DNA from: Bacteroides sp.
GTDB taxonomy: Bacteria; Bacteroidota; Bacteroidia; Bacteroidales; P3
Direction: 5' to 3'
Length of the DNA stretch: 64,000 bases
Assembly: GCA_023662825.1 (NCBI GenBank)
Contig: JAMPIH010000005.1
Location: 72,007-136,006, forward strand
The stretch's first letter is position 1, and every line of letters begins with the position of its first letter. Positions 2,977-39,413 of this stretch are shown piece after piece. A program made the translations under genes and the position numbers. The notes beneath the pieces were generated by a model. That model ran no database searches. It had not been told where the DNA came from and was given only the letters and a program-made list of their open reading frames with translations.

Positions 2977-4914
2977 TCAGAAATGCACCTTGAGCCCGCC
3001 GCGCACGGTCACCTGGGGCATGGGGTCGCCGGCGTTGATTTCGTAGCGTTGGCCCAGCAGGTTCTCGCCGCAGACCCATAGGTCGAGCCATTTGGTCACG
3101 CGCACCTGCCCGCGCAGGTTCCACAGCACGAAATCCTCCTTCGATTCCGTGCCCTGGCCGTTGGTGCGCACCGAAGTGTAGAGGCCGGCGATGTACTGCA
3201 CGCCGGTGGACACCGACCAACGCCCCTCCTGGAAGCCCGCCCCCACGTAGAGTTTGTGTTCGGGCGCGGCGACAACGGGATTCTCCATATGCAGGAAACT
3301 GTAGTTGGCGTCCACCGACCAGGCCGCATTGATGCGGAAGGCCGACTGCACCTCCAAGCCTACGTTCTCTATCGCCCCCGAATTCTGGTTCAGCATGCCG
3401 CTTCCGTTCGGATTGGGCAAGGTCATGATGAGGTTCCTGCCCCGTATGTAGAAGACATTGAGCCCGTAAGACAGCCGCCCGCCCAGGAGCCGTTGGGCAA
3501 AAGCGATTTCGTAGTTCCACATCGACTCGGGCTTCAAATCCGGATTCTGGGGCGGGAACATATACATCTCGCGCAGGATCGGATAGCGGAAACCTTTCGA
3601 GGCCGAAGCCTTCAGCTCGATGGCGTGGGGCAGGTGGAAGGCCAGCCCCGCCTGCGGCACCCATTCGGCACCCACGCGGGAATGATAGTCGAAACGCAGG
3701 CCGGCGTTCAGGCTCAGCCATCTGCCGATATCCTGCCGGAACTCCACATAGCCCGCCAGTTCATCTTCGTGCTTGTTCACCAAATCGCTCCGCGTACCCT
3801 CGCGCTCCCCGCTCACATACTCGTTCCACGCCCTGCCGCCGTAGCGGAACCAGTCGAAGCCCGCCGTAATCCGGTTCCCCTTGAAGAAGCGCGCACTCTG
3901 ATAGAGCGACACCCCCATCATGTCGTCGTAAGACTTGAAGCGGCTGTCTCTCGGTTCCTCGCCCGCGGCGGGGTTGTAGCCGTCGTTGATCCAGTGGTTT
4001 CCCCAGTTGTAGAAGAAACTCAGCGCGCCGGAAGTCTTCTCGTACCCGTTCTCCACGGCCAGCGAGGCCATGCCCCGCGTGATGCGCTGGTCGGCATCGC
4101 TCAAAGGCGCGGACACCGGGCCGGGGTTGGCGGCGTTGAAGTGGGTCACGTTCACGTCCGCCTGCACCGTCCAGTTCTTGCTGGCCTCGTAGGCCACCTT
4201 GCCGTAGCCGCCGTACTGTTCGAATTCCGTGTTGCTCCGGTGGCCGTCGGTGCGGTTGTAGGACGCGCTCACCACGCTCGAGAAACGCCCCTTGCGGACA
4301 CGGTTCGTCGCCTCGGTTTCCAAGGTGTTGTAGGTGCCGTAGCCGGCGCGGATGTCGGTGCGCACGCCGTCCTGGTGCATCTTGCGGGTAACGATGTTGA
4401 CCACGCCGCCCATCGCGTTCGAGCCGTAGAGCACCGAGGCCGGGCCGCGCAGCACCTCCACGCGGTCGGCCAAGAGCGTCTGGTAGGCGTCGGAAATGGG
4501 ATGCCCGAAGATGCCGGCGTATTGCGGATGGCCGTCGATCAGCACCATCAGGCGGGCGTTGCCGCCGCTCAGTCCGCGCAGGGAGATGCCGCCCGCCGCG
4601 CCGTTGGACACGCCGTAGCCCATCACGCCGCGCGAGGTCACGAACAGCCCCGGCACCTGCTCGGTGAGCATCGGCAGCAGGGACGACTGCATGGATTCCT
4701 CAATCTGGGCGCGGCCGATCACCGAGACGGTCTGAGAGAGGTGGCGCAGGTCTATCTGCGCGCGGGTGCCGGTGATGACCACCTCCTGCAAGGCCGCGCC
4801 GCGCACCGTGCTGTCGGCCGTGGCAGGCACCCAACCCCTGGCGGCTTCCTGCGCCGGAGCCATAGATAGCCCCGCGCACGCCAAGGCAACGAACATCAGC
4901 GCTTGTTTCAACAT
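2977..4914 (-). CDS. TonB-dependent outer-membrane receptor (plug plus 22-strand barrel, C-terminal aromatic residue)
   Basis: Signal peptide; TonB-box-like EVVITGTRAQ; plug and barrel motifs; ends ...GGLKVHF; the track ORF starts at GTG 4947 and the ATG is at 4914. Confidence 0.85.
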   Translation of the reverse strand: MLKQALMFVALACAGLSMAPAQEAARGWVPATADSTVRGAALQEVVITGTRAQIDLRHLSQTVSVIGRAQIEESMQSSLLPMLTEQVPGLFVTSRGVMGYGVSNGAAGGISLRGLSGGNARLMVLIDGHPQYAGIFGHPISDAYQTLLADRVEVLRGPASVLYGSNAMGGVVNIVTRKMHQDGVRTDIRAGYGTYNTLETEATNRVRKGRFSSVVSASYNRTDGHRSNTEFEQYGGYGKVAYEASKNWTVQADVNVTHFNAANPGPVSAPLSDADQRITRGMASLAVENGYEKTSGALSFFYNWGNHWINDGYNPAAGEEPRDSRFKSYDDMMGVSLYQSARFFKGNRITAGFDWFRYGGRAWNEYVSGEREGTRSDLVNKHEDELAGYVEFRQDIGRWLSLNAGLRFDYHSRVGAEWVPQAGLAFHLPHAIELKASASKGFRYPILREMYMFPPQNPDLKPESMWNYEIAFAQRLLGGRLSYGLNVFYIRGRNLIMTLPNPNGSGMLNQNSGAIENVGLEVQSAFRINAAWSVDANYSFLHMENPVVAAPEHKLYVGAGFQEGRWSVSTGVQYIAGLYTSVRTNGQGTESKEDFVLWNLRGQVRVTKWLDLWVCGENLLGQRYEINAGDPMPQVTVRGGLKVHF

Positions 4915-11686: not shown

Positions 11687-12718
11687 TTAGAATGGCTCCT
11701 TTTCAAGCAATCGATCCAACTGGGCTTGAAGTTCCTCTCTTTTGGGCAGATAAAGTTGGTATTTTGCTGCAAAAAGTTGATTTGTATTATCTTGCAGCGC
11801 ATATTCCATAAGAAGTTCATCTTTCTTTGCCCCAAGTACAATGCCGATAGGGGGGTTATCGTCCGGTTGGCAAATTTCGGTCTTGAAGTAGTTGATGTAC
11901 AGATTCATTTGCCCAATGTCATTGTGTCTTATTTCTGCCCGTTTAAGGTCTATCAGCACATAACATTTCAGGATGCAATGATAAAACACCAAATCAACCT
12001 TGAAGCATCTGCTCCCTATCTGCATTGTGTATTGTCGTCCGATAAATGCAAAACCGCGTCCCAGCTCCAATAGGAATTGTTCCATATTTGCTTTGAGTGC
12101 GGCCTCCAAGTCACATTCCCTATATCGCTTCCTTGCAGGCAATCCCGTAAATTCCAGCACATAAGGATCATGTATTATATCTTGCGGCGTAAGCACCTGA
12201 TGTCCTTCATTGGCTAAAGCTAAAATACCTTCTTTGTCTGTGCTCAATGCCAACCGTTGAAATAAGGAACTTTTTATCTGTCGTTTAAGTTCACGTACCT
12301 TCCATCCTTCCTGGATGGCTTGCTTAAAGTAGAATTGCATTTCCAATGGGTCATCGCATTTCAGTAATTCGAAATAGTGACTCCAAGACAATTTGTGAGA
12401 CAGTGTTTCACAAATTGGAAATGCTACATATAACTTACGCATATAGTTTAGGTTGGAGCGGCTGAAGCCTTTTCCTCGTGCTAATGTCAGATCCTTTGAT
12501 AGGTTGACCAATAGTTGCTTGCCGTACTCGGCTCTGGCAGCTCCTTTCTGTTCGAACTCTACGATGTATTGTCCCGTTTTCCAATTGGCTTCAAGGAGGT
12601 TGGTATTTACAGCGGTTATGGCTTTTTCCTTTGCTGTATCCCATAAGCCGATAATGCGGTCAACAAGTTCATCATATCCTTTGCCGTTATTATGCGTTGT
12701 CGTTATGTCTTGACCCAT
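11687..12718 (-). CDS. DUF1016 (YhcG-like) PDDEXK nuclease-domain protein, paralog 1
   Basis: YhcG_N-like N-terminus and a PDDEXK-like C-terminus (VDLVFY..YVLIDLK); AT-rich; conserved leader with GAGGAGG just upstream of ATG 12718; an alternative upstream ATG at 12766. Confidence 0.75.
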   Translation of the reverse strand: MGQDITTTHNNGKGYDELVDRIIGLWDTAKEKAITAVNTNLLEANWKTGQYIVEFEQKGAARAEYGKQLLVNLSKDLTLARGKGFSRSNLNYMRKLYVAFPICETLSHKLSWSHYFELLKCDDPLEMQFYFKQAIQEGWKVRELKRQIKSSLFQRLALSTDKEGILALANEGHQVLTPQDIIHDPYVLEFTGLPARKRYRECDLEAALKANMEQFLLELGRGFAFIGRQYTMQIGSRCFKVDLVFYHCILKCYVLIDLKRAEIRHNDIGQMNLYINYFKTEICQPDDNPPIGIVLGAKKDELLMEYALQDNTNQLFAAKYQLYLPKREELQAQLDRLLEKEPF

Positions 12719-12814
12719 TTCAGTCCTCCTCAAATTCTCGGTGTTGTCGGTAATTTCAATTTCCATAAGTTTTTCGGGGCCATGGAAACAAAAGGGTTCG
12801 GCAAGGCCGGAAGT

Positions 12815-14593
12815 TCATCGTTTAACGATCTTGTGGCGGACAGTGGCGCCATTCCCGTCTGTGGCCTCCAATACGTAAACGCCGGCGGGAAGTTGGCTCA
12901 TGTCGATTTCCCTTGCACCGCCCCGTACGCGCAGTCGCTCGTTTCCCTGTAGATCCAACAGACGCAAACCAAGAACGTTCGCCGCGTCCTCTCCTCCATC
13001 TTGCACCTTAATGTAGAGGGTAGTCCCACAAGGATTGGGATAAGCAGAGAGCACCGTCCGGGGCAGGCGCGTTGTGTTGGAGAGCGTGTCGCCGCCCGGA
13101 ATTTCCTCCCGGACGACATATCGGGCGGTGGCCACCGCCGAGTTGATCCAGCCGTCCTTCATTGCCATAGCCTTGATTACAAGAGAGTCCTGGATTGCGA
13201 TGCCGTCGGTGTAGAGCGCCGAGTTCTCGGTGGGCGTGCTGCCGTCGAGGGTATAGCGGATTTGTGCGTTCTCGGTGGCGCAGGAGATTCGAATCCTTGT
13301 TCCCTTTTCCACCGTGTCTTTTTTCGGTTCGAATACCGGTATGTCGCAAGTGTCGGGGAGGGCGGGAAGTTCGACGGAAACGTGATAGGAAACGCTTACA
13401 GGCGTGTTTTCCTGTCGGAAAGGCGCAAAATAGACAGGCGTATGGCAATGGGTCAGGATACCGCTGTTTTGTAATTGAACCCTATAGTTCCCGCTTCTTT
13501 TGAAAATCAGGAAGCCTTCGGAGAAGGTGTAGTCGGTTCCCTCGCGCAAGGTGTCCTTGCTCTCTTCATCATATACGTTGCATTGCGTGGCGGTATTTTC
13601 AAAATAGGCTTCCGGCCGCAAATCGAGCGTGTCGATGCGTATCGGGTCAAGATACAGGTGCTGGTTGGAAGTGTAGTGCCAGAAGGCGGTGTCCAGGTGG
13701 GCGAAAGAGGCATCGAACCATTGCGTCACGGCAAGGTTCCGGGCTAAGGAAAGGGCGTTGTTTGCGGCATACAGGCATTGCAGCCGGGAGCAGTTGAAGA
13801 TGCCTAAGGTGTCCAGTCTGTTGTCGGCGCAGTGAAGGTATTCCAAGCGAGGGCAATTGTCCACTTCAAGGTAAGACAGATTGTTGTTGAAACATTCCAG
13901 CCATTGCAGGGAAGTGTCGTTGCTCACGTTCAGGGTTTTGAGGCGGTTGTTGCCGCAGTAGAGCCCTTGCAGTTTGGGGAGGCTGTCGGCGGTCAGCGAA
14001 TCCAGCCGGTTGTTGTAGCAGAAGATTTGCTGCAGTTTTTTGTTTCCTCTCAAATCCAAGGAACTCAGTTGGTTGTTGTAGCAATCCAACCAATAGAGTT
14101 GCGGGTTTCGGTTCAGGTTCAGCTGTTCCAGCAAGTTGAACGAACAGTTCAGTTCCTGTAAGTCGCTGTTGGCGCTCACATCCAGTACGGAAAGCCGGTT
14201 TTGGGCGCAGTTCAGTTCCTGCAGGGCAAGGTTGCGGCTTACATCCAAGGCGGTAAGTTGGTTGCCCGGACAATGCAAGGTTTGCAAGGTCTCGATTTCG
14301 CTTACATCCAGGCTTTTGATACCGGAAATGCGCAGGGCGGTGAGCTTTCCTCCTGAAGCATAAACTTTGCACGGGGTTTGGTCGGGCAGGGCCGACAGTT
14401 CCAGCGGTATGTCGGAAAGCACATGTGTCTGCGGGGCAGAGTCTCCGCATTCCAATACGACTGTCGTGTTCTCATCGCCGCGCAGGCTCAATTGGGCCGA
14501 TTCGGAGGTCTCAAAACGTATCGTGTCGGCGGTCTGACCGAAAACGGGCGAAAAACATGCGAAGACAAGGCCTAAGAATCCATAGGGTTTCAT
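12815..14593 (-). CDS. Leucine-rich-repeat surface protein with a chitobiase/beta-hexosaminidase C-terminal-like domain and a T9SS C-terminal sorting domain
   Basis: Signal peptide; ~12 LRRs (LQELNC..NRLSVLDVS); C-terminal Por_Secre_tail-like beta-sandwich. Confidence 0.75.
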   Translation of the reverse strand: MKPYGFLGLVFACFSPVFGQTADTIRFETSESAQLSLRGDENTTVVLECGDSAPQTHVLSDIPLELSALPDQTPCKVYASGGKLTALRISGIKSLDVSEIETLQTLHCPGNQLTALDVSRNLALQELNCAQNRLSVLDVSANSDLQELNCSFNLLEQLNLNRNPQLYWLDCYNNQLSSLDLRGNKKLQQIFCYNNRLDSLTADSLPKLQGLYCGNNRLKTLNVSNDTSLQWLECFNNNLSYLEVDNCPRLEYLHCADNRLDTLGIFNCSRLQCLYAANNALSLARNLAVTQWFDASFAHLDTAFWHYTSNQHLYLDPIRIDTLDLRPEAYFENTATQCNVYDEESKDTLREGTDYTFSEGFLIFKRSGNYRVQLQNSGILTHCHTPVYFAPFRQENTPVSVSYHVSVELPALPDTCDIPVFEPKKDTVEKGTRIRISCATENAQIRYTLDGSTPTENSALYTDGIAIQDSLVIKAMAMKDGWINSAVATARYVVREEIPGGDTLSNTTRLPRTVLSAYPNPCGTTLYIKVQDGGEDAANVLGLRLLDLQGNERLRVRGGAREIDMSQLPAGVYVLEATDGNGATVRHKIVKR

Positions 14594-14719: not shown

Positions 14720-15814
14720 CTATTCGTTTTCTTCCAGTTTCTTTAATTCTTCATTTTCTTCAAACTCTTCAATCCATTCCTTCACCTTGGCTTGCAATAA
14801 AGCCTTGTTGGGGAGATAAAGCTGATAGGCAGAAGCATAGATATTGGCCTCCTTAGGCAAGGTGAGTTCCACAAGTGCATCGTTCTTCTCCTTGCACAGC
14901 AGAATGCCGATTGTCGGCTTTTCAAAATCTTGTTTGACATAGCGGTCATAATAGTTGACATACATCTGCATCTGTCCAAGATCTTGGTGAGTAAGTTTGT
15001 CTATCTTCAAATCTATAAGTACATAGCATTGCAGCAAACGATTATAGAACACTAAGTCAACAAAGAAATGCTGTTCATCGAATGTGAACCGTTTCTGCCT
15101 CGCTTCAAAAAGGAACCCTTTGCCGAGTTCTAATAGAAATTGCTGCATCTTGTTGATGATGGCATTCTCTAATTTCGATTCCGAGTAGGCGGCATCGGAT
15201 TTCAGACCGAGAAACTCCAATGTGATGGGATTCTTGATGATGTCCGATGGTTTTTCGATGGTCTGTCCCTCTCGTGCCAACCGCATTACTTCGGCTTTGT
15301 TACGGCTCAATGCAAGGCGCTCGTAGAGGCTACTGCCTATCTGACGGCTGAGCTGTCGTACGCTCCATTGTTGCTCGGCACATTCTATTTCATAGAAACT
15401 GCGGGCATCGGGATTCTCGATGCGCATAAGAATAAGATAATGAGACCACGAAAGGGAGAACGCGGGAATCTGTTCTATGTAGGAGGTGTTTTCAATTTGA
15501 TGAACACCGTTTATCAAATTGGCATAGACCAAATAAAACTGTCGGATTTGACGCAAATAGGGATACGACCATCCGTCCCCAAACCTATCCGTCAGACGCT
15601 TGGATAATTCTTGCAATACTGCTTTTCCGTATTCGGCTCTCGTGGCACCTTTCTGTTCATATTCCACTATGTATTGTCCGATATGATACTTGGTATAGAC
15701 CTCTGCCACGTTGACGGCGGTGGACACACGTTTTCTAGCCTGTTCTACAAGGTCTGCTACCTTTTGAAACAGGGTGTTCATATCATGGATGTTTGCGGCG
15801 ATGTCTTGTCCCAT
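14720..15814 (-). CDS. DUF1016 (YhcG-like) PDDEXK nuclease-domain protein, paralog 2
   Basis: ~40% identical to paralog 1; the same conserved leader precedes ATG 15814; the longer track ORF (to 16030) has no nearby start codon. Confidence 0.75.
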   Translation of the reverse strand: MGQDIAANIHDMNTLFQKVADLVEQARKRVSTAVNVAEVYTKYHIGQYIVEYEQKGATRAEYGKAVLQELSKRLTDRFGDGWSYPYLRQIRQFYLVYANLINGVHQIENTSYIEQIPAFSLSWSHYLILMRIENPDARSFYEIECAEQQWSVRQLSRQIGSSLYERLALSRNKAEVMRLAREGQTIEKPSDIIKNPITLEFLGLKSDAAYSESKLENAIINKMQQFLLELGKGFLFEARQKRFTFDEQHFFVDLVFYNRLLQCYVLIDLKIDKLTHQDLGQMQMYVNYYDRYVKQDFEKPTIGILLCKEKNDALVELTLPKEANIYASAYQLYLPNKALLQAKVKEWIEEFEENEELKKLEENE

Positions 15815-15980
15815 TTCAGTCCTCCTCAATTTCTCGATATTATCAATAATTTCAACTTCAAAGGTAGTTTTTATTTGGTTCGGATACAAAGGAGGATTGG
15901 ATTCCCCAAAAATGGCATTTATGCCAACTTTTTGGAATGCTCGGCTTATGCGTATCTTCGCGTGGTAAAGAAAGCCTCCT

Positions 15981-16547
15981 ATGCAAACCCCGAACCCCGA
16001 CAAACCCCGCTGCTTCTGGGCGAACCCCAAGAATCCCCTTTATATTGAATATCACGACAAGGAATGGGGCGTGCCCGAACACGACGACCGAAAATTGTTC
16101 GAAATGCTGATTCTCGAGGGCTTTCAGGCCGGTCTGTCGTGGGAGTGCGTGCTCAACAAGCGCGAGGCCTTCCGCCGTGTCTTTGCCGGTTTCGACCCCG
16201 GGAAAGTGGCCGCGTTCACCGAAGCGCAACAGGAAAGACTGATGGCCGAGCCCGGCATCATCCGCAACCGCCTCAAGATAAAGGCCGCCACCATTAACGC
16301 ACAGATTTTCTTGAAAATCCAGGCCGAGTTCGGTTCGTTCGACGCCTATCTGCAAGGCTTCACGCAAGGCAAGACACTTTACGAAACGGGCAAGGCTAGC
16401 AACGCCCTCTCGGACGCCCTTTCCAGAGACCTGAGGAAGCGCGGCATGAAATTCGTGGGAACCACCATCGTCTACGCCTTCCTGCAAGCCGTCGGCGCAA
16501 TAAATTCGCACGAAAAGGATTGCTTTCTGTACTGCGGCAGGAACTGA
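15981..16547 (+). CDS. tag: DNA-3-methyladenine glycosylase I
   Basis: Strong Tag family match (EYHDKEWGVP, FEMLILEGFQAGLSW). Confidence 0.9.
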   Translation: MQTPNPDKPRCFWANPKNPLYIEYHDKEWGVPEHDDRKLFEMLILEGFQAGLSWECVLNKREAFRRVFAGFDPGKVAAFTEAQQERLMAEPGIIRNRLKIKAATINAQIFLKIQAEFGSFDAYLQGFTQGKTLYETGKASNALSDALSRDLRKRGMKFVGTTIVYAFLQAVGAINSHEKDCFLYCGRN

Positions 16548-27919: not shown

Positions 27920-27954
27920 CTTTCTTTTTCTTTGTCGCACAAAGAAAAAGAAAG
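27920..27954 (+). terminator. Perfect 16-bp stem hairpin (ctttctttttctttgt-cgc-acaaagaaaaagaaag) immediately after abiEii
   Basis: Perfect inverted repeat; a partial third copy of the arm at 27958-27976. Confidence 0.55.
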
Positions 27955-28177
27955 GACGCAAAGAAAAAGAAAGCGCTCCTCAGCGGAGGGCAAGTGGTGC
28001 TTGCCAGGGGCTTCGACCTCTCGCGCACCCTGCGCACTTGGCCTGCGCCATGGAATAACTTACGGGGCTGCACCCCGCAAGAACCCGCGCCCTACGCTGC
28101 GGTCGGTGCCTCCGGCGGTTGGTTGGCATGCTTGCTTCGCTTGCGCGCGGTGGGCGCCTTCAGCGAGGATGAAAAAG

Positions 28178-28210
28178 AAGAAGGCGGTTTCCGACAGGAA
28201 ACCGCCTTCT
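28178..28210. terminator. Bidirectional hairpin (agaaggcggtttcc-gacag-ggaaaccgccttct) at the 3' end of the LRR-MBG gene
   Basis: 14-bp perfect stem; flanked by A/T runs. Confidence 0.55.
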
Positions 28211-28230
28211 TGCTTTGCAGGGCGCTGAGG

Positions 28231-30201
28231 TTATCGTACAATCACCTTGTGGCTCTTGTTCCCGGCCTTTACGATATACAGGCCGCTGTGCCGTACCGGA
28301 ATGGCGGTGGCGTGGCCGTTGTAGAGGCATTGACCGAGCGTGTTATAAACCTGCACGTCACGGTATTCGGAAAGATGGATAACGCGGTCTCTGGCGTACA
28401 CACGGAAGCCGTCTTCTTTCCGGCTTTCGTTGCCTACATTATCCGGTTCTTTCTCGAAGTTGGCCGTCAGTTCCATATCTTCAGTCACTTCAAAGGTGTA
28501 AACCGCTTTTGTGCTGAACACGGAGCCGTCCATTTCCGTCCAGTTCACGAAGCGGTAGCCCTCGTTGGGCGTGGCGGTGATGGTTGCATTCTCGCCTTGG
28601 CTATAGGTGCCACTTCCTGCAATAGTGGCCACACCCCAGTCGGTATTGTTGCTCTGTACCGATATCGATATATTGAACCTGTCAATGATGACAAGGGTCT
28701 TTGATATTCGGACAGCCGAGAAGTAGTTGTTGTTTCCGTTTTGACTCGCCTTCACCGTTATGGTTCCTTTTTTCTGACAATCGAGAACGGCCACGTCTCC
28801 TGCATAGTAAATATCGGCTATGCCTTCCGGAGAGATTTCATATTCAACCGGAAGCCCGGAAGATGTTGAGGCGGTAAGTTCTATTTGATCATCCACATTA
28901 ACATCCCGAAAGCTTTGATTCCATGATAAAGTCTGGTTCGCTTTGGTGATGGTCAGGGTGCCGCTGTCGTAGCTGAATCGATAGTTGGTCGCCTCGCCAC
29001 CTGAAACACAGATGGGGTATTCCCCGACATCGGAAGTCTGCGTGGCTTCACACTGCACTGTCGGCAATGTATTTAGCGCCGAATAAGGGCGGTCATTGTT
29101 GACAAATCCCGAATACTCTATCTCGAATGCAGGATTTTTCGTGCCATAAGTTCGGGTATAGTCGGATACGGAAACCTGCAACAGCCGTTTGGATACGGTA
29201 AGCGTGCCGGGATGGTATTCAAAAGAATAGTTTTGCGCCTGCCCTCCGGATATTGTTATCTCATAATTTCCTACCGTCGATTGTTTATTCGCATGACTTG
29301 CGGCGACCGGCAACTGCTGTAAATCTGCTATCCCGTCATTATTCAAAAAACCCGAATACGAAAGTTCGAAAATAGGATTTTCTTCTCCGTATTCACGAGA
29401 GATGTCCTTTACCGAAACCGATAGCGTTTGCGGTTTGATTTCGTAATAGACGGCCACTTCCGCCGTATAAGTAAATCCTTCATATTCAAAGGTGATGGGG
29501 ATTAGTGCACGATGTGTACCCGCTTCTTTCTGCATTTGGGGTTCCAGCATGCTTATAATCTTACATCCCTCTACATTGCATTTCAATCCGGGAAATGCCG
29601 GTTCCTGTCCTGTATAGGCAAAAATATCCTGTTCAAATGAGAGTATCGGAACAAGCTTGCGTTGTTCCGTGTTTTCAAGTGAATAAGCCTTTATGTCAGC
29701 CACATAGAGGGTTGCCGCTTCAGAACCTTGAGACTGCCACTTTGACGGCGGTAGGAGGGAAAGATACATGATATATCGCAAACGATCACAGCCGGAAAAA
29801 ACCGAGTTGCCTAATCCTCTAAGTTTGGGAGGAAATACTACAGAAATAAGATTTCCACACCCGAGAAATGATAGGTTTTCCACTATCTCTAATGAATCAG
29901 GAAGTCTTATTTTTTTTATAGAGGAGGAGTAGGAAAAGGCACCGTGGCTACGACCACTTCCATGATCATAATATCTTAATCTGTTGACTATATAAGGAAT
30001 GCCTTCATACATAATTGAAGAAGGGATTACATACACGGAATCAGTGTAACCGGAAATACTGGCCTTAGGCGTAATGACATCTGCATGTACCCCATCATCA
30101 ATACAGTAAGTTATTTTATCAATCTGTACGACTACAGCAAAGTCCTTAGTTATGCTTGCGGCTGCAATAAAGGCAATCAGAATCAAAAAGATTTTTTTCA
30201 T
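28231..30201 (-). CDS. Cell-surface protein with BspA-type leucine-rich repeats, MBG repeats and a T9SS C-terminal sorting domain
   Basis: Signal peptide MKKIFLILIAFIAAAS; repeated YG(E/T)xNPxFE...GNYxI (MBG) modules; C-terminal Por tail; lower GC. Confidence 0.7.
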   Translation of the reverse strand: MKKIFLILIAFIAAASITKDFAVVVQIDKITYCIDDGVHADVITPKASISGYTDSVYVIPSSIMYEGIPYIVNRLRYYDHGSGRSHGAFSYSSSIKKIRLPDSLEIVENLSFLGCGNLISVVFPPKLRGLGNSVFSGCDRLRYIMYLSLLPPSKWQSQGSEAATLYVADIKAYSLENTEQRKLVPILSFEQDIFAYTGQEPAFPGLKCNVEGCKIISMLEPQMQKEAGTHRALIPITFEYEGFTYTAEVAVYYEIKPQTLSVSVKDISREYGEENPIFELSYSGFLNNDGIADLQQLPVAASHANKQSTVGNYEITISGGQAQNYSFEYHPGTLTVSKRLLQVSVSDYTRTYGTKNPAFEIEYSGFVNNDRPYSALNTLPTVQCEATQTSDVGEYPICVSGGEATNYRFSYDSGTLTITKANQTLSWNQSFRDVNVDDQIELTASTSSGLPVEYEISPEGIADIYYAGDVAVLDCQKKGTITVKASQNGNNNYFSAVRISKTLVIIDRFNISISVQSNNTDWGVATIAGSGTYSQGENATITATPNEGYRFVNWTEMDGSVFSTKAVYTFEVTEDMELTANFEKEPDNVGNESRKEDGFRVYARDRVIHLSEYRDVQVYNTLGQCLYNGHATAIPVRHSGLYIVKAGNKSHKVIVR

Positions 30202-30821
30202 TGTATTTTATTTTTAGAATTTTCATCGCAAAACGCTTCTATTTCGCAAAGCGTTTTATAGACTAACTCCAGTATTGCGTGGAGAAAATTTGCGGAGGAT
30301 ATGCTATATCCATCATAAACTTCGTCTAATCCTGATTCGCCATACTTTTCCAAACAAGCTTGAATCCGTTCTTTTCGTTCCTTGGAAAGACTCCCATGAA
30401 CGAAATAGTTGCGGAGTTCCCTAATTGATTCATTTATCAATTCTATGTCTGGATTGCAGGGGAACCCGAGGGCTAATATGGTTTTCAATGGCTTTTGGCC
30501 ACTTACACTTATGGTGCGTTCGTAAAATCTTATAATTCTGCAAAGCCCCGTTTCCCAAAAACAATAGATGGCGCAGAATATTGATTGATTGAATAATGCG
30601 TATTGACTGGTTATGTCGAGCTGCGCGTTGTATAAAGGATTACAGAGAGAACTGATTTCCTCTACATCAATCGATGCATCGTTGTTGATGGAGCCTATCT
30701 CATCTTCGAGGTTTTTGATCGCTGCGCAAATCAGGGAGGATTGTTCCTCAATGATTTGTTTATAGGCCGCATGCTCAAAATCAATCCCTGCACGTATGGA
30801 GGTGCGCCCTTTGGCTATCAT
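30198..30821 (-). CDS. Hypothetical protein with a C-terminal Rx4H motif (possible HEPN-like domain)
   Basis: AT-rich ORF; RELRNYFVH motif; stop overlaps (ATGA) the start of the surface-protein gene; the track ORF begins at TTG 30875 and the first ATG is at 30821. Confidence 0.4.
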   Translation of the reverse strand: MIAKGRTSIRAGIDFEHAAYKQIIEEQSSLICAAIKNLEDEIGSINNDASIDVEEISSLCNPLYNAQLDITSQYALFNQSIFCAIYCFWETGLCRIIRFYERTISVSGQKPLKTILALGFPCNPDIELINESIRELRNYFVHGSLSKERKERIQACLEKYGESGLDEVYDGYSISSANFLHAILELVYKTLCEIEAFCDENSKNKIQ

Positions 30822-30928
30822 TTTGTTGGTTTTTAGTGTATTTGAGTTCGTGTGTCTGGCTTCAATGTGTAGCAAATATAATTTAATTATCCGTAACTAA
30901 AAATCAATACTCTTGATTAAATGTAAGA

Positions 30929-31040
30929 TTTATATTATTATAATTTGCTGTTGCGGGGTTTGCTGACTCGTGGGCAGAGCCCGAAACCCTTGGTTTTTGC
31001 AATGCCCGTTGTGTCTTGTGGCAAATTATAATAATATAAA
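30929..31040. repeat. 20-bp perfect inverted repeat (tttatattattataatttgc / gcaaattataataatataaa) flanking a 72-bp GC-rich core
   Basis: Exact reverse complements at 30929-30948 and 31021-31040; the core carries nested short GC stems. Confidence 0.8.
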
Positions 31041-31082
31041 ACCGAGGTGATTGCAAGTTCGTTGGGGAGAGGATGAAAAATT

Positions 31083-31358
31083 TTAGAAGATATCGGAATG
31101 GGTTCCGGTGGTAATCAGCAATAACGTTAGGCGGTTATCGTCTTGCTCCCAGACAAGAAGCCAATCGGAAGAGATATGGCACTCCCAATAACCGGAATAT
31201 CTGCCGGATAATTTGTGCGGACGATATGCAGGAGGTAGTTTCCCGTTTTCGGAAAGAATACGGACAGCGGTCTTTAGAAGAGATACATCAAGTCCACGTT
31301 TAATGCATTTAGCGAGGGCTTTTTCGACATGGTTCGTGGTGTTGACTATGTAGCTCAT
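31083..31358 (-). CDS. yafQ: Type II TA toxin, YafQ/RelE family mRNA interferase
   Basis: 91 aa; C-terminus ...LLLITTGTHSDIF is typical of YafQ. Confidence 0.8.
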   Translation of the reverse strand: MSYIVNTTNHVEKALAKCIKRGLDVSLLKTAVRILSENGKLPPAYRPHKLSGRYSGYWECHISSDWLLVWEQDDNRLTLLLITTGTHSDIF

Positions 31359-31555
31359 AGTCCGAACTTGTTAAAGAGGGCATCAACGCTTTCGTAGCGG
31401 TTTACACGGCCTTCTTTCGCATCGTTTATGGCATCGTCCAGGCCGGTTCGCCTCAGGTTTTGCCGTTCGATAGACACCCCCTTTATCGAAGCCAGGACTT
31501 TGCGGAGGCTGGGGAGGATTTTGGGATCCTCGATATTTAAGACCAATTGATTCAT
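31355..31555 (-). CDS. Putative DinJ/RelB-like antitoxin
   Basis: Small ORF whose stop overlaps (ATGA) the yafQ start; DinJ-like C-terminus (...ESVDALFNKFGL); the track ORF starts at GTG 31618 and the ATG is at 31555. Confidence 0.6.
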   Translation of the reverse strand: MNQLVLNIEDPKILPSLRKVLASIKGVSIERQNLRRTGLDDAINDAKEGRVNRYESVDALFNKFGL

Positions 31556-31659
31556 AGCCAAAGATACGAAATATTCCCCACATTTGCGCAATCCCGTGCG
31601 AACCCTTACCTTTGTCACTTACGGCATAAAACGCTGTTAGACTTTCATACGGGTAATAC

Positions 31660-34047
31660 GTGAATCACTGCTTCCGACATCGTTTCCGCGAGATACTGCG
31701 CATATTGATATGCGTTGCTGTTCTGTGTGCTCATGGGCGTATATACGCCCAGACCGCCTACCTGCTTTCGGGCAGGATTCAGGACAAGAAGACTTCGCAG
31801 ACCATGCCCGACGCCGCCATTTGGGTTGAACCCGCGGGCAAGGGCACCACTTCCGATATCGACGGCCGCTATCAGCTCAGGCTTCCCCCCGGCACCTATA
31901 CCGTTAAGGTGAGCAGCTTAGGCTACGGCACCATCACTCGCAGCATCGAGGTCAAATCCAAGAACCTTACCGAGAACTTCTATCTCGAGGCCGATGCCGT
32001 GCAGCTCGAAGGCGTGGAGATCCGGGGCAGCCGCGCGCAACAGGCCGCGCGCAACACTATCGGCATGAACACCTTTACCTCCGAGATGGTGCAGCGCATT
32101 CCGGCCCTCTTGGGCGAGGCCGACATCATCAAGGCGGTGCAGATGCTGCCCGGCGTGCTCATGGCCTCCGAGAGCAGCTCCGGATTCAGCGTGCGCGGCG
32201 GCGGGCTCGACCAGAACGCCATCCTGCTCGACCGCACCCTGATCTACAATCCCACCCATACCTGTGGATTCTTTTCGGTCTTCAACAACGATGTGATCGG
32301 CGGCGCGGAAATCTACAAGGGCGACATCCCCATCGCCTATGGCGGCCGGCTGTCGTCGGTGGTGGACGTTTCCATGCGCGACGGCAACTTCAACGACTAC
32401 CACTTGGAGGGCGGGGTGGGGTTGCTGCTGGCCAAGCTCACCGTGGACGGCCCCATCTGGAAAGACCACACTTCCTTTCTCGTGTCGGGGCGCACCACCT
32501 ACTTCGATATGTTCCTGCCCCTGGTGGGCATGAAGGGCACCAAATTAGGTTTCTACGACCTGAACGCCCGCATCGTGCATAAGTTCGACAACAATAAGGA
32601 CAAGATCTCGCTGTCGGGCTATATGGGGCGCGACCGCTTCGGCATGCGTTCCGACGGCGACACCAAGACCGGGCTCAATTTCGGCAACAAGATGCTCGCG
32701 CTCACCTACACGCACCTTTTCTCGAACCGCCTGGCACTGAACACCACGGTAAACGTAAGCGACTATATCAGCGATGTGGCCATGGTCGCCGACGGCTACG
32801 ACTTCTCTTGGAAAAGCCGCATCACCGACGTGGGCGGGCAGATCGACGGCGTGTTCACGCCCGAGAACCACGACCTCCGCTTCGGCTTCCAGATAAAGTA
32901 CCATACCTGCCAGCCCGGCGAGATGAAGCTGCACATGAGCGAGAGCATGGGATTCCTCGATTCGGCGCGCCGCATGACCTTCAACCAGGACAAGATGCAC
33001 AGCCTCGAGAGCGCCCTCTACGCCGGCAACAGCCAGACCATCGGCAAGCACCTCTCCATCAAGTACGGCCTGCGGTTCAGCACTTTCTCCAACCAGGGCA
33101 AGGACTCGGTGTCCCGCTTCGACAAAGACTATCAGCGCATCGACCGCGTGTACGAAGGCGAGCGCGATTTCTACCATACATGGTACGGCTTCGAGCCCCG
33201 CGTGGGCATCGCCTGGCTGTTCCGGCACAACATCAGCCTCAAGTTCAACTACACCCGCACCGTACAGTACCTGCAATTGGCCACCAATTCCAATTCGGGC
33301 AACCCCATGGACATCTGGTTCCCCGCCAATCCGTTCGTAAGGCCGCAGACCGCCGATATGCTGGCCCTGGGCCTCAGTGCCGACTGGGGCAAGGACGGGC
33401 AGTGGTCGGCCTCCGTGGAAGGCTACTACAAGTTCATGCACCACGTCATCGACTTCAAGGACCATTCCAATGTGCTGCTCAACAGCGACCTCTACGGCGA
33501 GCTGCGCATGGGCAGGGGCTGGGCCTACGGTGTGGAGGTCTATGTGCAGCGCAAGAAAGGCATGGTGTATGGCTCGCTCAGCTATACCTATTCGCGTTCC
33601 ATGCGCGTCATCGACCAGGTGAACGACGGCAAGCCCTATCCCTCGCCCCAGGACAGGCCGCACGCCGTGAACCTGCTGCTCAACATCGACCCGCATCCGC
33701 GTCACTCCCTCTCGTTCAACTGGGTGTTCTACTCGGGGCAGCCCGCCACCTATCCGGTAGGCAAGGCCGTGATCGACGGCCAGTTCGTGCCTGTCTATGG
33801 CAGGCGCAACTCCGACCGTTTCGAAGATTACCACCGCCTCGATGTGTCCTACACCTTCAAGTCTAAGCCCAATACGGGCAAGCGCTTCAGCTGGAGCCTC
33901 TCGGCGGGGCTTTACAATGCCTACGCCCGCAAGAACCCCTGGACGGTGTCGTTCAAGCAAGACAGGGACAATCCCAATATCGCCTACGCCGAGAAGATCT
34001 ACCTTTTCTCGGCGGTGCCTTTCGTCTCGTTCAACTTCAAATGGTAA
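31660..34047 (+). CDS. TonB-dependent receptor with an N-terminal carboxypeptidase-regulatory-like domain
   Basis: CarbopepD_reg-like region (YLLSGRIQD...PDAAIW), plug and barrel; no in-frame ATG near the 5' end (GTG 31660 or TTG ~31705). Confidence 0.8.
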   Translation: MNHCFRHRFREILRILICVAVLCAHGRIYAQTAYLLSGRIQDKKTSQTMPDAAIWVEPAGKGTTSDIDGRYQLRLPPGTYTVKVSSLGYGTITRSIEVKSKNLTENFYLEADAVQLEGVEIRGSRAQQAARNTIGMNTFTSEMVQRIPALLGEADIIKAVQMLPGVLMASESSSGFSVRGGGLDQNAILLDRTLIYNPTHTCGFFSVFNNDVIGGAEIYKGDIPIAYGGRLSSVVDVSMRDGNFNDYHLEGGVGLLLAKLTVDGPIWKDHTSFLVSGRTTYFDMFLPLVGMKGTKLGFYDLNARIVHKFDNNKDKISLSGYMGRDRFGMRSDGDTKTGLNFGNKMLALTYTHLFSNRLALNTTVNVSDYISDVAMVADGYDFSWKSRITDVGGQIDGVFTPENHDLRFGFQIKYHTCQPGEMKLHMSESMGFLDSARRMTFNQDKMHSLESALYAGNSQTIGKHLSIKYGLRFSTFSNQGKDSVSRFDKDYQRIDRVYEGERDFYHTWYGFEPRVGIAWLFRHNISLKFNYTRTVQYLQLATNSNSGNPMDIWFPANPFVRPQTADMLALGLSADWGKDGQWSASVEGYYKFMHHVIDFKDHSNVLLNSDLYGELRMGRGWAYGVEVYVQRKKGMVYGSLSYTYSRSMRVIDQVNDGKPYPSPQDRPHAVNLLLNIDPHPRHSLSFNWVFYSGQPATYPVGKAVIDGQFVPVYGRRNSDRFEDYHRLDVSYTFKSKPNTGKRFSWSLSAGLYNAYARKNPWTVSFKQDRDNPNIAYAEKIYLFSAVPFVSFNFKW

Positions 34048-39272: not shown

Positions 39273-39345
39273 AAGAATAGACAGGCTCGCCCTCCGCACA
39301 AGAAGAAAGAAGTCTCATACGCCGTCTCAGGCGTAAAAACTAAAA

Positions 39346-39380
39346 AGGGAAGGGGAAAAGCATGGCTTTTCCCCTTCCCT
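39346..39380. terminator. Perfect 16-bp hairpin (agggaaggggaaaagc-atg-gcttttccccttccct) downstream of rplQ
   Basis: Perfect inverted repeat with A/T runs on both sides. Confidence 0.6.
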
Positions 39381-39413
39381 TTAAAAACTCCCTATCGGGA
39401 AGAATTCCGGAAC

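Follow-up and report, generated by a model that had tools for sequence, protein, structure and literature searches.

The Correia elements (CREE) of Neisseria are 105–155 bp long, carry 26-bp terminal repeats and lie ~98 bp 5′ of opa surface-protein genes; they act through RNase III, IHF and promoters, and co-transcribed CREE form RNase III-sensitive hairpins (PMC2649163). In Borrelia burgdorferi, a long perfect inverted repeat (IR) stands just upstream of the promoter of vlsE, a surface-protein gene exchanged by recombination, and either cruciform formation or protein binding has been proposed for it (PMC7584230). The invertons of gut Bacteroidales, in turn, have IRs of ~20 bp upstream of surface-structure genes; they enclose a promoter, occur in both orientations and need a recombinase. 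Here, we describe a 112-bp IR at positions 30929–31040 of a 64,000-nucleotide stretch of a Bacteroides sp. assembly (GCA_023662825.1, contig JAMPIH010000005.1, positions 72,007–136,006), which we call the window. The IR lies between a YafQ-type toxin–antitoxin (TA) operon and the promoter of a variable surface-protein cassette, is outside every known family tested and is not mobile now.

The arms, TTTATATTATTATAATTTGC (30929–30948) and GCAAATTATAATAATATAAA (31021–31040), show full 20/20 complementarity across a 72-nt core, and their starts are 92 nt apart. The perfect repeat and its spacing are exactly as the original prediction had drawn them, and its claim that the match is not random also holds: the arm 20-mer has no further match in the window at up to three mismatches, where 0.01 are expected by chance, and none of 100 shuffled sequences had two or more arm matches. 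The 20/20 IR is real and far beyond chance. Among all IRs of at least 16 nt in the 64 kb, it is the sole one with a large loop. Its predicted location between yafQ and the downstream promoter is likewise correct, with the yafQ stop codon 42 nt away on one side and, on the other, a TAnnTTTG box 48 nt and the cassette ATG 108 nt beyond the IR. The stem comprises 18 A/T pairs and two G–C pairs, and GC content is 10% in the arms and 56% in the core. Each arm contains an 8-bp palindrome, ATTATAAT, and a smaller palindrome, AACCnnnGGTT, lies at 30985–30995 in the core. The gene-sense strand of the core is C-rich, which makes the core strand-asymmetric; a similar skew extends over the whole 30600–31400 region. 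The element is composed of the following parts:

31021–31040, no strand assigned: yafQ-side IR arm (the 5′ arm in the gene-sense, minus-strand direction), identical in four of the five distinct copies
30985–31020, no strand assigned: conserved core half, with AACCnnnGGTT
30949–30984, no strand assigned: hypervariable 36-nt core patch, the promoter-proximal half, with 21 of 36 columns variable
30929–30948, no strand assigned: promoter-side IR arm, invariant in all copies, at about −63 to −82 from the inferred downstream transcription start site

Like CREE, the element is intergenic and of comparable size, has long terminal inverted repeats (TIRs; 26 bp in CREE, 16–20 bp here) and a core able to carry a protein-binding site, and it ends 108 nt before an ATG where CREE lie ~98 bp 5′ of opa. 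CREE, however, exist in 100–250 dispersed copies with target duplications of the dinucleotide TA and presence/absence polymorphism, whereas this element is confined to one module of one species, has neither dispersed copies nor an empty site, shows a TA duplication only as a possibility and shares no sequence similarity with CREE. The likeness to the vlsE IR lies in a long perfect repeat just upstream of the promoter of a recombination-exchanged surface-protein gene. The vlsE repeat is ~100 bp long, has practically no spacer and overlaps the −35 box, whereas here 20-bp arms are held apart by a 72-nt spacer and the element ends 48 nt before the −7 box; phylum, replicon and mechanism of variation differ as well. 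With the Bacteroidales invertons, the element shares arm length and placement, but the enclosed promoter, the two orientations and the recombinase that mark those systems were not found.

Six copies of the IR, five of them distinct, are present in four metagenome-assembled genomes (MAGs) of one Bacteroidales species (GCA_023664225.1, GCA_023667785.1, GCA_023667315.1 and the window's own assembly, with MCM1041700.1); the additional copies were recovered via the YafQ protein cluster. All have one orientation, a 72-nt core and 92-nt spacing of the arm starts. A scan of one genome per species (185,579 species) for the arms found the pair at 92-nt spacing on only two contigs of one MAG (L023 and L024), and the 27 single-arm loci that it returned are chance matches (20–26 nt matched, with one of 32 nt at 91%, in a mix of coding and intergenic sites). 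Because the 20-mer may include target-derived bases, this exact-20-mer scan could miss copies with other flanks. A flank-independent scan of JGI metagenomes with the inner arms yielded no family member, only unrelated palindromes of ~220 nt, and no family member appeared among viral contigs, whose scans, likewise independent of the flanks, used the arm, the conserved core half and the pair of 16-nt TIRs. BLAST against plasmids and phages gave no match, look-ups of the antitoxin, GcvH and YchF for more strains gave none beyond the same MAGs, and a protein search with the N terminus of the leucine-rich repeat (LRR) protein for promoter blocks without the TA pair gave no match. Further copies of the element thus exist, as the original prediction allowed, but only within the same module.

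The unrelated palindromes are near-perfect, with variable central loops, and belong to a family present on at least four contigs of one metagenome, Ga0268261 (L030:2047–2142, L031:807–915, L032:5657–5752 and L033:380–487). They have a 12-mer in common with the arms and look like a foldback or MITE-type repeat (miniature inverted-repeat transposable element) unrelated to the IR.

Every copy sits in one block that alignments A2 and A3 show as conserved from the 3′ end of yafQ as far as the next ATG. Together with the TA genes, this block makes up a head module of ~0.75 kb comprising the antitoxin gene, yafQ, the IR, a Bacteroidetes-type promoter, a 5′ untranslated region (UTR) and an ATG, behind which the surface-protein cassettes, of LRR and type IX secretion system (T9SS) type, vary. 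The relevant genes of the window are all on the minus strand, in the order antitoxin, YafQ toxin, IR, 207-aa protein and LRR/MBG surface protein:

31559–31566, minus strand: putative −7 box of the TA operon promoter, TATCTTTG, an exact TAnnTTTG 3 nt before the antitoxin ATG
31355–31555, minus strand: antitoxin gene, 66 aa, ATG at 31555, with a 4-nt overlap with yafQ
31083–31358, minus strand: YafQ-family toxin gene, last of the TA operon (Pfam YafQ_toxin, E = 4e-27)
30873–30880, minus strand: −7 box of the cassette promoter, TATATTTG, an exact TAnnTTTG invariant in all copies, 48 nt from the IR
30198–30821, minus strand: first cassette gene in the window, 207 aa, with its ATG at 30821 reached by the conserved 5′ UTR; other genes stand here in other copies
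28231–30201, minus strand: variable LRR/MBG surface-protein gene, 656 aa (Pfam MBG_2, Flg_new_2 and LRR_5)

The window and L034 are collinear on both sides (window 38646–30861 and 28585–23262), and the difference between them is confined to the stretch from the promoter to the C-terminal part of the surface-protein gene. The last ~118 codons of that gene are conserved and close the cassette at its 3′ end, and from window 28585 onward the two loci are syntenic again. Elsewhere, too, homology between loci ends just after the −7 box of the cassette or at the ATG. In the window, the first downstream gene encodes the 207-aa HEPN-like protein; L034 has a gene for a 91-aa protein in its place, and in L023, L024, L038 and L039 an LRR protein with a signal peptide is encoded there. 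In L023, the module lies in an unrelated context (glyA, mscL), homology begins exactly at the antitoxin ATG and yafQ is mostly deleted. The presence of the IR block in unrelated contexts, before differing genes, identifies the head module as the unit that was duplicated before exchangeable surface-protein cassettes, and the sequence comparison indicates that it reached at least two, probably three, genomic contexts and was exchanged between strains. The TA genes of the module copies differ at 2–7% of 4-fold sites. Between the window and L024, 4-fold divergence is 2–3% in the TA genes (31083–31555) and 14% in the adjoining TonB-receptor gene (31660–34047), which argues that the module was exchanged or homogenised, by exchange or gene conversion, more recently than the backbone. 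TA pairs related at a greater distance (64–71% identity) lack a downstream IR, and within the tiny antitoxin family the single distant relative is without the IR as well. The IR was therefore acquired once by this module and is not general to YafQ systems.

Several further observations concern the cassettes and the assemblies that contain them. The stretch from the promoter up to the C-terminal ~118 codons of the LRR/T9SS surface protein is wholly replaced between strains and paralogues (window 28585–30861 versus L034:7780–10187 and L040:8498 onward) and looks like a cassette-exchange site for surface antigens, and the small 207-aa and 91-aa genes of the window and L034 are extra genes inserted right behind the cassette promoter. 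The L023 copy of the module (4231–4495) has lost ~205 bp of yafQ, which leaves an intact orphan antitoxin 99.5% identical to that of the window. The downstream LRR genes contain tandem repeats of ~63 nt, visible as a 63-nt offset in self-BLAST (L023:5673–6180, L038:1391–1863 and L040:9168–9407); both JAMPAI01 MAG contigs end within these repeats, so the assemblies break there. At L050:13613–15737 (JAMOZR010000001.1), the conserved LRR C-terminal fragment is followed by unrelated genes (Por_Secre_tail, Gate and T9SS_plug) and no module, while the same assembly holds the module and the TonB-receptor gene on a separate contig (L039); this arrangement is either a real cassette rearrangement or an assembly join through the repeat. 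The MAGs are labelled Bacteroides sp. at NCBI except for one labelled Ruminococcus flavefaciens (GCA_023667315.1, JAMPAI01; L023 and L024/L040), whose contigs here carry TonB-dependent receptors, SprA/T9SS genes and Bacteroidetes-type promoters and are 92% identical to the window. Judged by this gene content, the Ruminococcus flavefaciens label is wrong or the bin is mixed.

Conservation, expressed as the mean pairwise difference among the distinct copies, varies along the element and its flanks:

yafQ 3′ end: 3.5%
Spacer between yafQ and the IR: 10.9%
yafQ-side arm: 4%, with two uncompensated substitutions, both in L034
Core half 30985–31020: 7.8%, similar to the flanks
Core half 30949–30984: 30.6%
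Promoter-side arm: 0%
IR to −7 box: 4.3%

In the patch at 30949–30984, pairs of copies differ at 8–16 of 36 sites (22–44%), as against 2–7% at the 4-fold sites of TA genes 50–600 nt away, an excess with Fisher p ≤ 0.01 in eight of nine testable pairs. The contrast is also seen between L024 and L034, which differ at 11 of 36 patch positions yet at only 2.9% of the 4-fold sites of the TonB-receptor gene. The patch contains no indels, and its gene-sense strand stays C-rich (15–19 C of 36) and poor in G and T; transitions and transversions are about equal in number when counted from alignment A3. A further cluster of substitutions lies in the 10 nt outside the yafQ-side arm. The states of the patch are structured by lineage (window, L038 and L034 versus L024 and L023) and thus look like descent with modification rather than independent randomisation. 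L039 and L040 are one strain (0 differences in 9,847 nt) and for that reason say nothing about the short-term stability of the patch. Because the flanks have ~1 indel per 25 variable columns, the lack of indels in the core is unsurprising (estimated P ~0.35).

None of the standard sources of such variation that we tried accounts for the patch. A single gene-sense reading frame stays open in every copy, yet it lacks an ATG, and the substitutions are spread 7:7:7 over the codon positions. Antisense pairing of each patch with its own flanking 1.5–3 kb was no better for matched than for mismatched pairs, and the folds of individual copies are inconsistent with a conserved but shifted hairpin. A target of a nearby diversity-generating retroelement is rejected as well, though a distant one could act in trans: the window has no second core copy longer than 12 nt and no reverse transcriptase, and the variable columns have lineage-structured states and include some without A in any copy. 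A possible Rho rut-like role for the C-rich 72-nt loop would not explain a rate above neutral, and the strand skew is shared by the whole 30600–31400 region. The patch may reflect local mutagenesis associated with the hairpin, combined with purifying selection on the other loop half; it may reflect diversifying selection on some specificity determinant; or it may be old divergence in an unconstrained stretch that was spared by gene conversion of its flanks. That it represents targeted non-coding diversification, by hairpin-directed hypermutation or by selection on a copy-specific recognition determinant, tied to a TA-anchored cassette-swapping platform, is a long shot. On the sense strand of 30949–30975 and of the arm at 30929–30948, the tetranucleotide GCAA recurs every 6–9 nt, for example in GCAAACCCCGCAACAGCAAATT; in L023, two adjoining GCAA units are altered in concert to CAATCCCG, which hints at short templated, slippage-type events as one source of clustered substitutions.

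The GC-rich, structured core of the original prediction stands only in part, in that the core is GC-rich and the GGGTTT..AAACCC and GGGC..GCCC stems are present in the window copy, but the structure is not supported. The whole element folds at −36.7 kcal/mol on the sense strand (z = −5.3) and −41.6 kcal/mol on the plus strand (z = −4.5), and these scores are strong because the arm stem alone supplies them. On its own, the core is no more stable than its dinucleotide-shuffled versions (z = −0.7 on the plus and −1.2 on the minus strand), its stems are not kept in the four other distinct copies, and the individual core folds of those copies differ, none being significant. RNAalifold on the five sequences gave covariation terms of +0.8 and −0.08 kcal/mol on the two strands, with only the invariant arm stem consistent; the AACC/GGTT mini-hairpin is the only feature that recurs among the individual folds. 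An alternative pairing of CCTCGGTTTT in the spacer with AAAACCAAGG in the core is not kept in the other copies. Rfam returned no match at gathering thresholds (in E-value mode the best was ~1, far below gathering), and ARAGORN found no tRNA or tmRNA. Taken as a known RNA family or a structured noncoding RNA, the element is therefore rejected, and with it the small structured RNA that the original prediction had listed.

That prediction had set out five functional options without committing to any, and although its account of position and non-randomness stands, most of the functions do not. A strong terminator was one of them. Terminators of the window have GC-containing stems of 16–23 nt, loops of 3–4 nt and U-tracts, and the canonical examples are these:

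27920–27954: canonical terminator after AbiEii
28170–28219: canonical terminator after the LRR gene
39344–39382: canonical terminator after rplQ

The IR is like them in being able to form a hairpin right after the last gene of an operon. However, its stem is nearly pure A/T, its loop is 72 nt, it has no U-tract and its arm polarity is reversed: the 3′ arm is A-rich in both directions and ends in ...AAUAUAAA, followed by UCUUAC (sense) or ACCGAG (antisense). The terminator scan was silent here, and an intrinsic terminator is thus rejected.

The 112-bp length and 20-nt perfect TIRs are features of a MITE, as had also been proposed. All copies nevertheless lie in the same block of TA genes, IR and promoter, and no empty-site polymorphism was found, which rejects a dispersed MITE within the reach of the scans, the genome scan being the one that depended on the flanks. 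No direct repeat borders the 20-nt arms on the outside, but each arm could be parsed as 16 nt of terminal repeat followed by a duplicated TA dinucleotide from a TTTTAAA target, in which case the duplication would hide inside the IR. As for a parent insertion sequence (IS), the genome scan found no locus with two arms 0.7–3 kb apart, and the window encodes no transposase. An integron attC site is not supported either, since the inner ends (..CCGCAAC and GTTGCGG..) are off the RYYYAAC...GTTRRRY consensus, the centre is not palindromic and the window has no integrase. An operator of a type II TA system, another of the suggested roles, is not supported: the IR lies downstream of the toxin gene, ~500 nt from the −7 box of the TA operon, and related TA loci have no IR. 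The vaguer idea of an insulator, or of an operator for the islet, survives as a possibility that fits the position of the IR.

Building on the observed anatomy, conservation pattern and module structure, and on the absence of rival-family features, we infer transcription through the region, a hairpin in vivo and a possible selected effect. We tentatively favor a reading, possible though short of probable, in which the IR is a one-off palindromic TIR-type insert, fixed in the 3′ UTR of the TA operon, that folds as a 20-bp RNA stem and serves as an RNA processing or boundary element. A lineage-specific insert of Correia-like shape would have been fixed between the YafQ TA operon and the surface-protein promoter before the module was duplicated, and would since have been inherited passively, only as part of the ~0.75-kb head module. 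Neighboring genes end in canonical terminators, whereas the gap between yafQ and the IR holds only a weak, chance-level terminator-like motif; as that gap has nothing resembling the terminators of this genome, TA transcripts should include the IR. TA transcripts running into the IR would form a 20-bp A/U-rich stem closing a 72-nt loop. Such a stem could, in the manner of co-transcribed CREE in Neisseria (PMC2649163), be the target of a double-strand-specific RNase, or it could block a 3′ exonuclease, and so set the 3′ end of the TA message; it would also separate TA transcription from the cassette promoter directly downstream. In L034, one of the two arm substitutions retains a G–U pair in the sense RNA.

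Several points weigh against this proposal. The arms are variable at two of 40 columns, as against 7–23% of columns in the flanks, and since they are no more conserved than expected in so young a block, their conservation alone is no proof of selection on the stem. Compensatory changes are absent from all pairs of the stem, and co-transcriptional folding of a near-pure A/U stem around a 72-nt loop could be outcompeted. An RNA-hairpin role explains neither the conserved nor the hypervariable loop half. Finally, the scans, with the 20-mer caveat on the genome scan, turned up no further family member, no parent IS and no empty site.

The same data bear on two accounts that dispense with an RNA function, each of which we regard as unlikely, the second more so. 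The IR could be a functionless relic, a dead MITE or inverted duplication hitch-hiking in a young module, with the patch arising from hairpin mutagenesis or from old divergence that was never erased. The module copies are so similar (2–7% at TA 4-fold sites) that arm conservation needs no selection, one copy already has two uncompensated arm substitutions, and the element is limited to four MAGs of one species. Such a relic would leave unexplained why one loop half is conserved like the flanks while the other is near saturation, and a long perfect IR would normally be unstable, whereas four of the five distinct copies have kept this one intact. Alternatively, the IR could act as DNA architecture, its arms being paired protein sites that bridge or loop 92 bp, with AACCnnnGGTT as an accessory site, and that would govern or insulate the cassette promoter across about −63 to −174. 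Its position directly upstream of a conserved promoter, the palindrome in each arm, the 72-nt core kept in all copies despite 31% divergence in one half, and a spacer in which one half is free in sequence while the other, with the small palindrome, is conserved are all consistent with this. Precedent comes from the IRs upstream of ospC and vlsE, which are reported or proposed as operator or protein-binding sites (PMC3700930; PMC7584230). There is, however, no candidate binding protein, 92 bp from center to center is a non-integral number of helical turns, the fixed length is weak evidence given the probability of finding no indels, and a neutral spacer leaves divergence above the synonymous rate unexplained.

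It is distinctly improbable, in our estimation, that the IR promotes recombination, with a hairpin or cruciform stalling replication or breaking DNA to drive cassette exchange and error-prone repair producing the hypervariability. Homology between strains or paralogues does end 50–110 bp downstream of the IR, at the promoter or ATG, each copy carries a different cassette, the loop and the 10 nt just beyond the yafQ-side arm are where substitutions concentrate, the history of the TA module departs from that of the backbone (4-fold divergence of 2–3% versus 14% in the TonB-receptor gene, window versus L024), and a long IR is present at the vlsE expression site (PMC7584230). This evidence is circumstantial; a 72-nt spacer strongly disfavors cruciform extrusion, conserved flanks suffice for cassette exchange, and just half of the loop is hypervariable. 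An inverton, in which a recombinase encoded elsewhere would flip the 72-nt core and alter expression of the downstream surface protein, is very unlikely. A short segment flanked by perfect 20-bp IRs ahead of a surface-protein gene is the classic arrangement in Bacteroidales, the majority of invertons measure under 300 nt, and in a strand-asymmetric core orientation could matter. The yafQ-side junction of arm and core reads ...CGGTTTTATATTATTATAATTTGC followed by CACAAGAC in the reference orientation, where an inverted core would give ...TATAATTTGC followed by TGTTGCGG (also ...CGGTTTTATATTATTATAATTTGC followed by TGTTGCGG). All five distinct assembled copies have the same orientation, so the orientation heterogeneity envisaged by the original prediction is absent among them, and its invertible-promoter remnant or recombination site is made less likely still by the promoter, which lies outside the IR (no TAnnTTTG occurs on either strand of the core, 30949–31020, or in the arms), and by the lack of any recombinase, invertase or integrase in the 64-kb window or the syntenic loci. 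A 72-bp spacer is, in addition, at or below the practical limit for intramolecular synapsis. The least probable account, with hardly any weight in our assessment, is a small RNA gene or convergent promoter pair, in which each arm, with CTTG 23 nt upstream, would form an inward-facing promoter-like sequence, TATAATTTG, giving a short core transcript and one antisense to the 3′ end of yafQ. The arm does resemble the authentic downstream promoter, ATTATA(A)TTTGC(C/T)ACA, and the −35/−10-like matches are symmetrical on both strands. The box within each arm is nonetheless off in spacing by one (TAnnnTTTG), a variant found upstream of one gene in the window as against five for TAnnTTTG; Rfam matches, conserved structure and covariation are lacking; the antisense RNA would have to begin with the hypervariable patch; and the patch has no copy-specific complementarity to anything nearby.

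The wider surroundings of the element are those of a core chromosome, with ribosomal-protein operons, rpoA, fusA, eno, sprA, ychF and gcvH, and the 64-kb window encodes no recombinase, transposase, integrase or reverse transcriptase. The YafQ protein of the window is identical to P0122 (MCM1041700.1). For the antitoxin, no family could be assigned and no similarity to DinJ or RelB was detectable, leaving the label "DinJ-like" of the original prediction unsupported; the label "HEPN-like" for the 207-aa protein has weak backing in a CARF_HEPN match (E = 0.003) and an RNYFVH (Rx4H) motif. The assignment of the −7 box of the TA operon follows the Bacteroidetes promoter consensus, and because this TAnnTTTG box ends 3 nt before the antitoxin ATG, the antitoxin mRNA is probably leaderless. 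An 87-aa, GTG-started open reading frame (ORF) at 31355–31618 in the mechanical ORF list is probably not the real antitoxin gene. Elsewhere in the window, two paralogous YhcG/DUF1016 PDDEXK-nuclease genes (11687–12766 and 14720–16030) bracket an LRR/T9SS surface-protein gene (12815–14593), which has no copy of the head formed by the TA genes, IR and promoter.

Considered alone, the IR is a rare, species-restricted palindrome with an inferred function, which is ordinary for bacterial intergenic DNA. The loop patch diverges ~ten-fold faster than the adjoining synonymous sites while keeping its length and composition, and no standard mechanism that we tested explains it. Should old divergence that gene conversion passed over be the whole cause, the element is unremarkable; should directed mutagenesis or diversifying selection tied to the cassette-swapping platform be at work, gut Bacteroidales would have a cis-element of a new kind behind their surface variation. 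The IR marks a compact head, consisting of a TA pair, a palindrome and a promoter, that is more conserved than the surrounding chromosome and is duplicated within genomes. As far as the sequences can tell, this arrangement suggests that one lineage of gut Bacteroidales expresses exchangeable surface antigens from a TA-anchored site.

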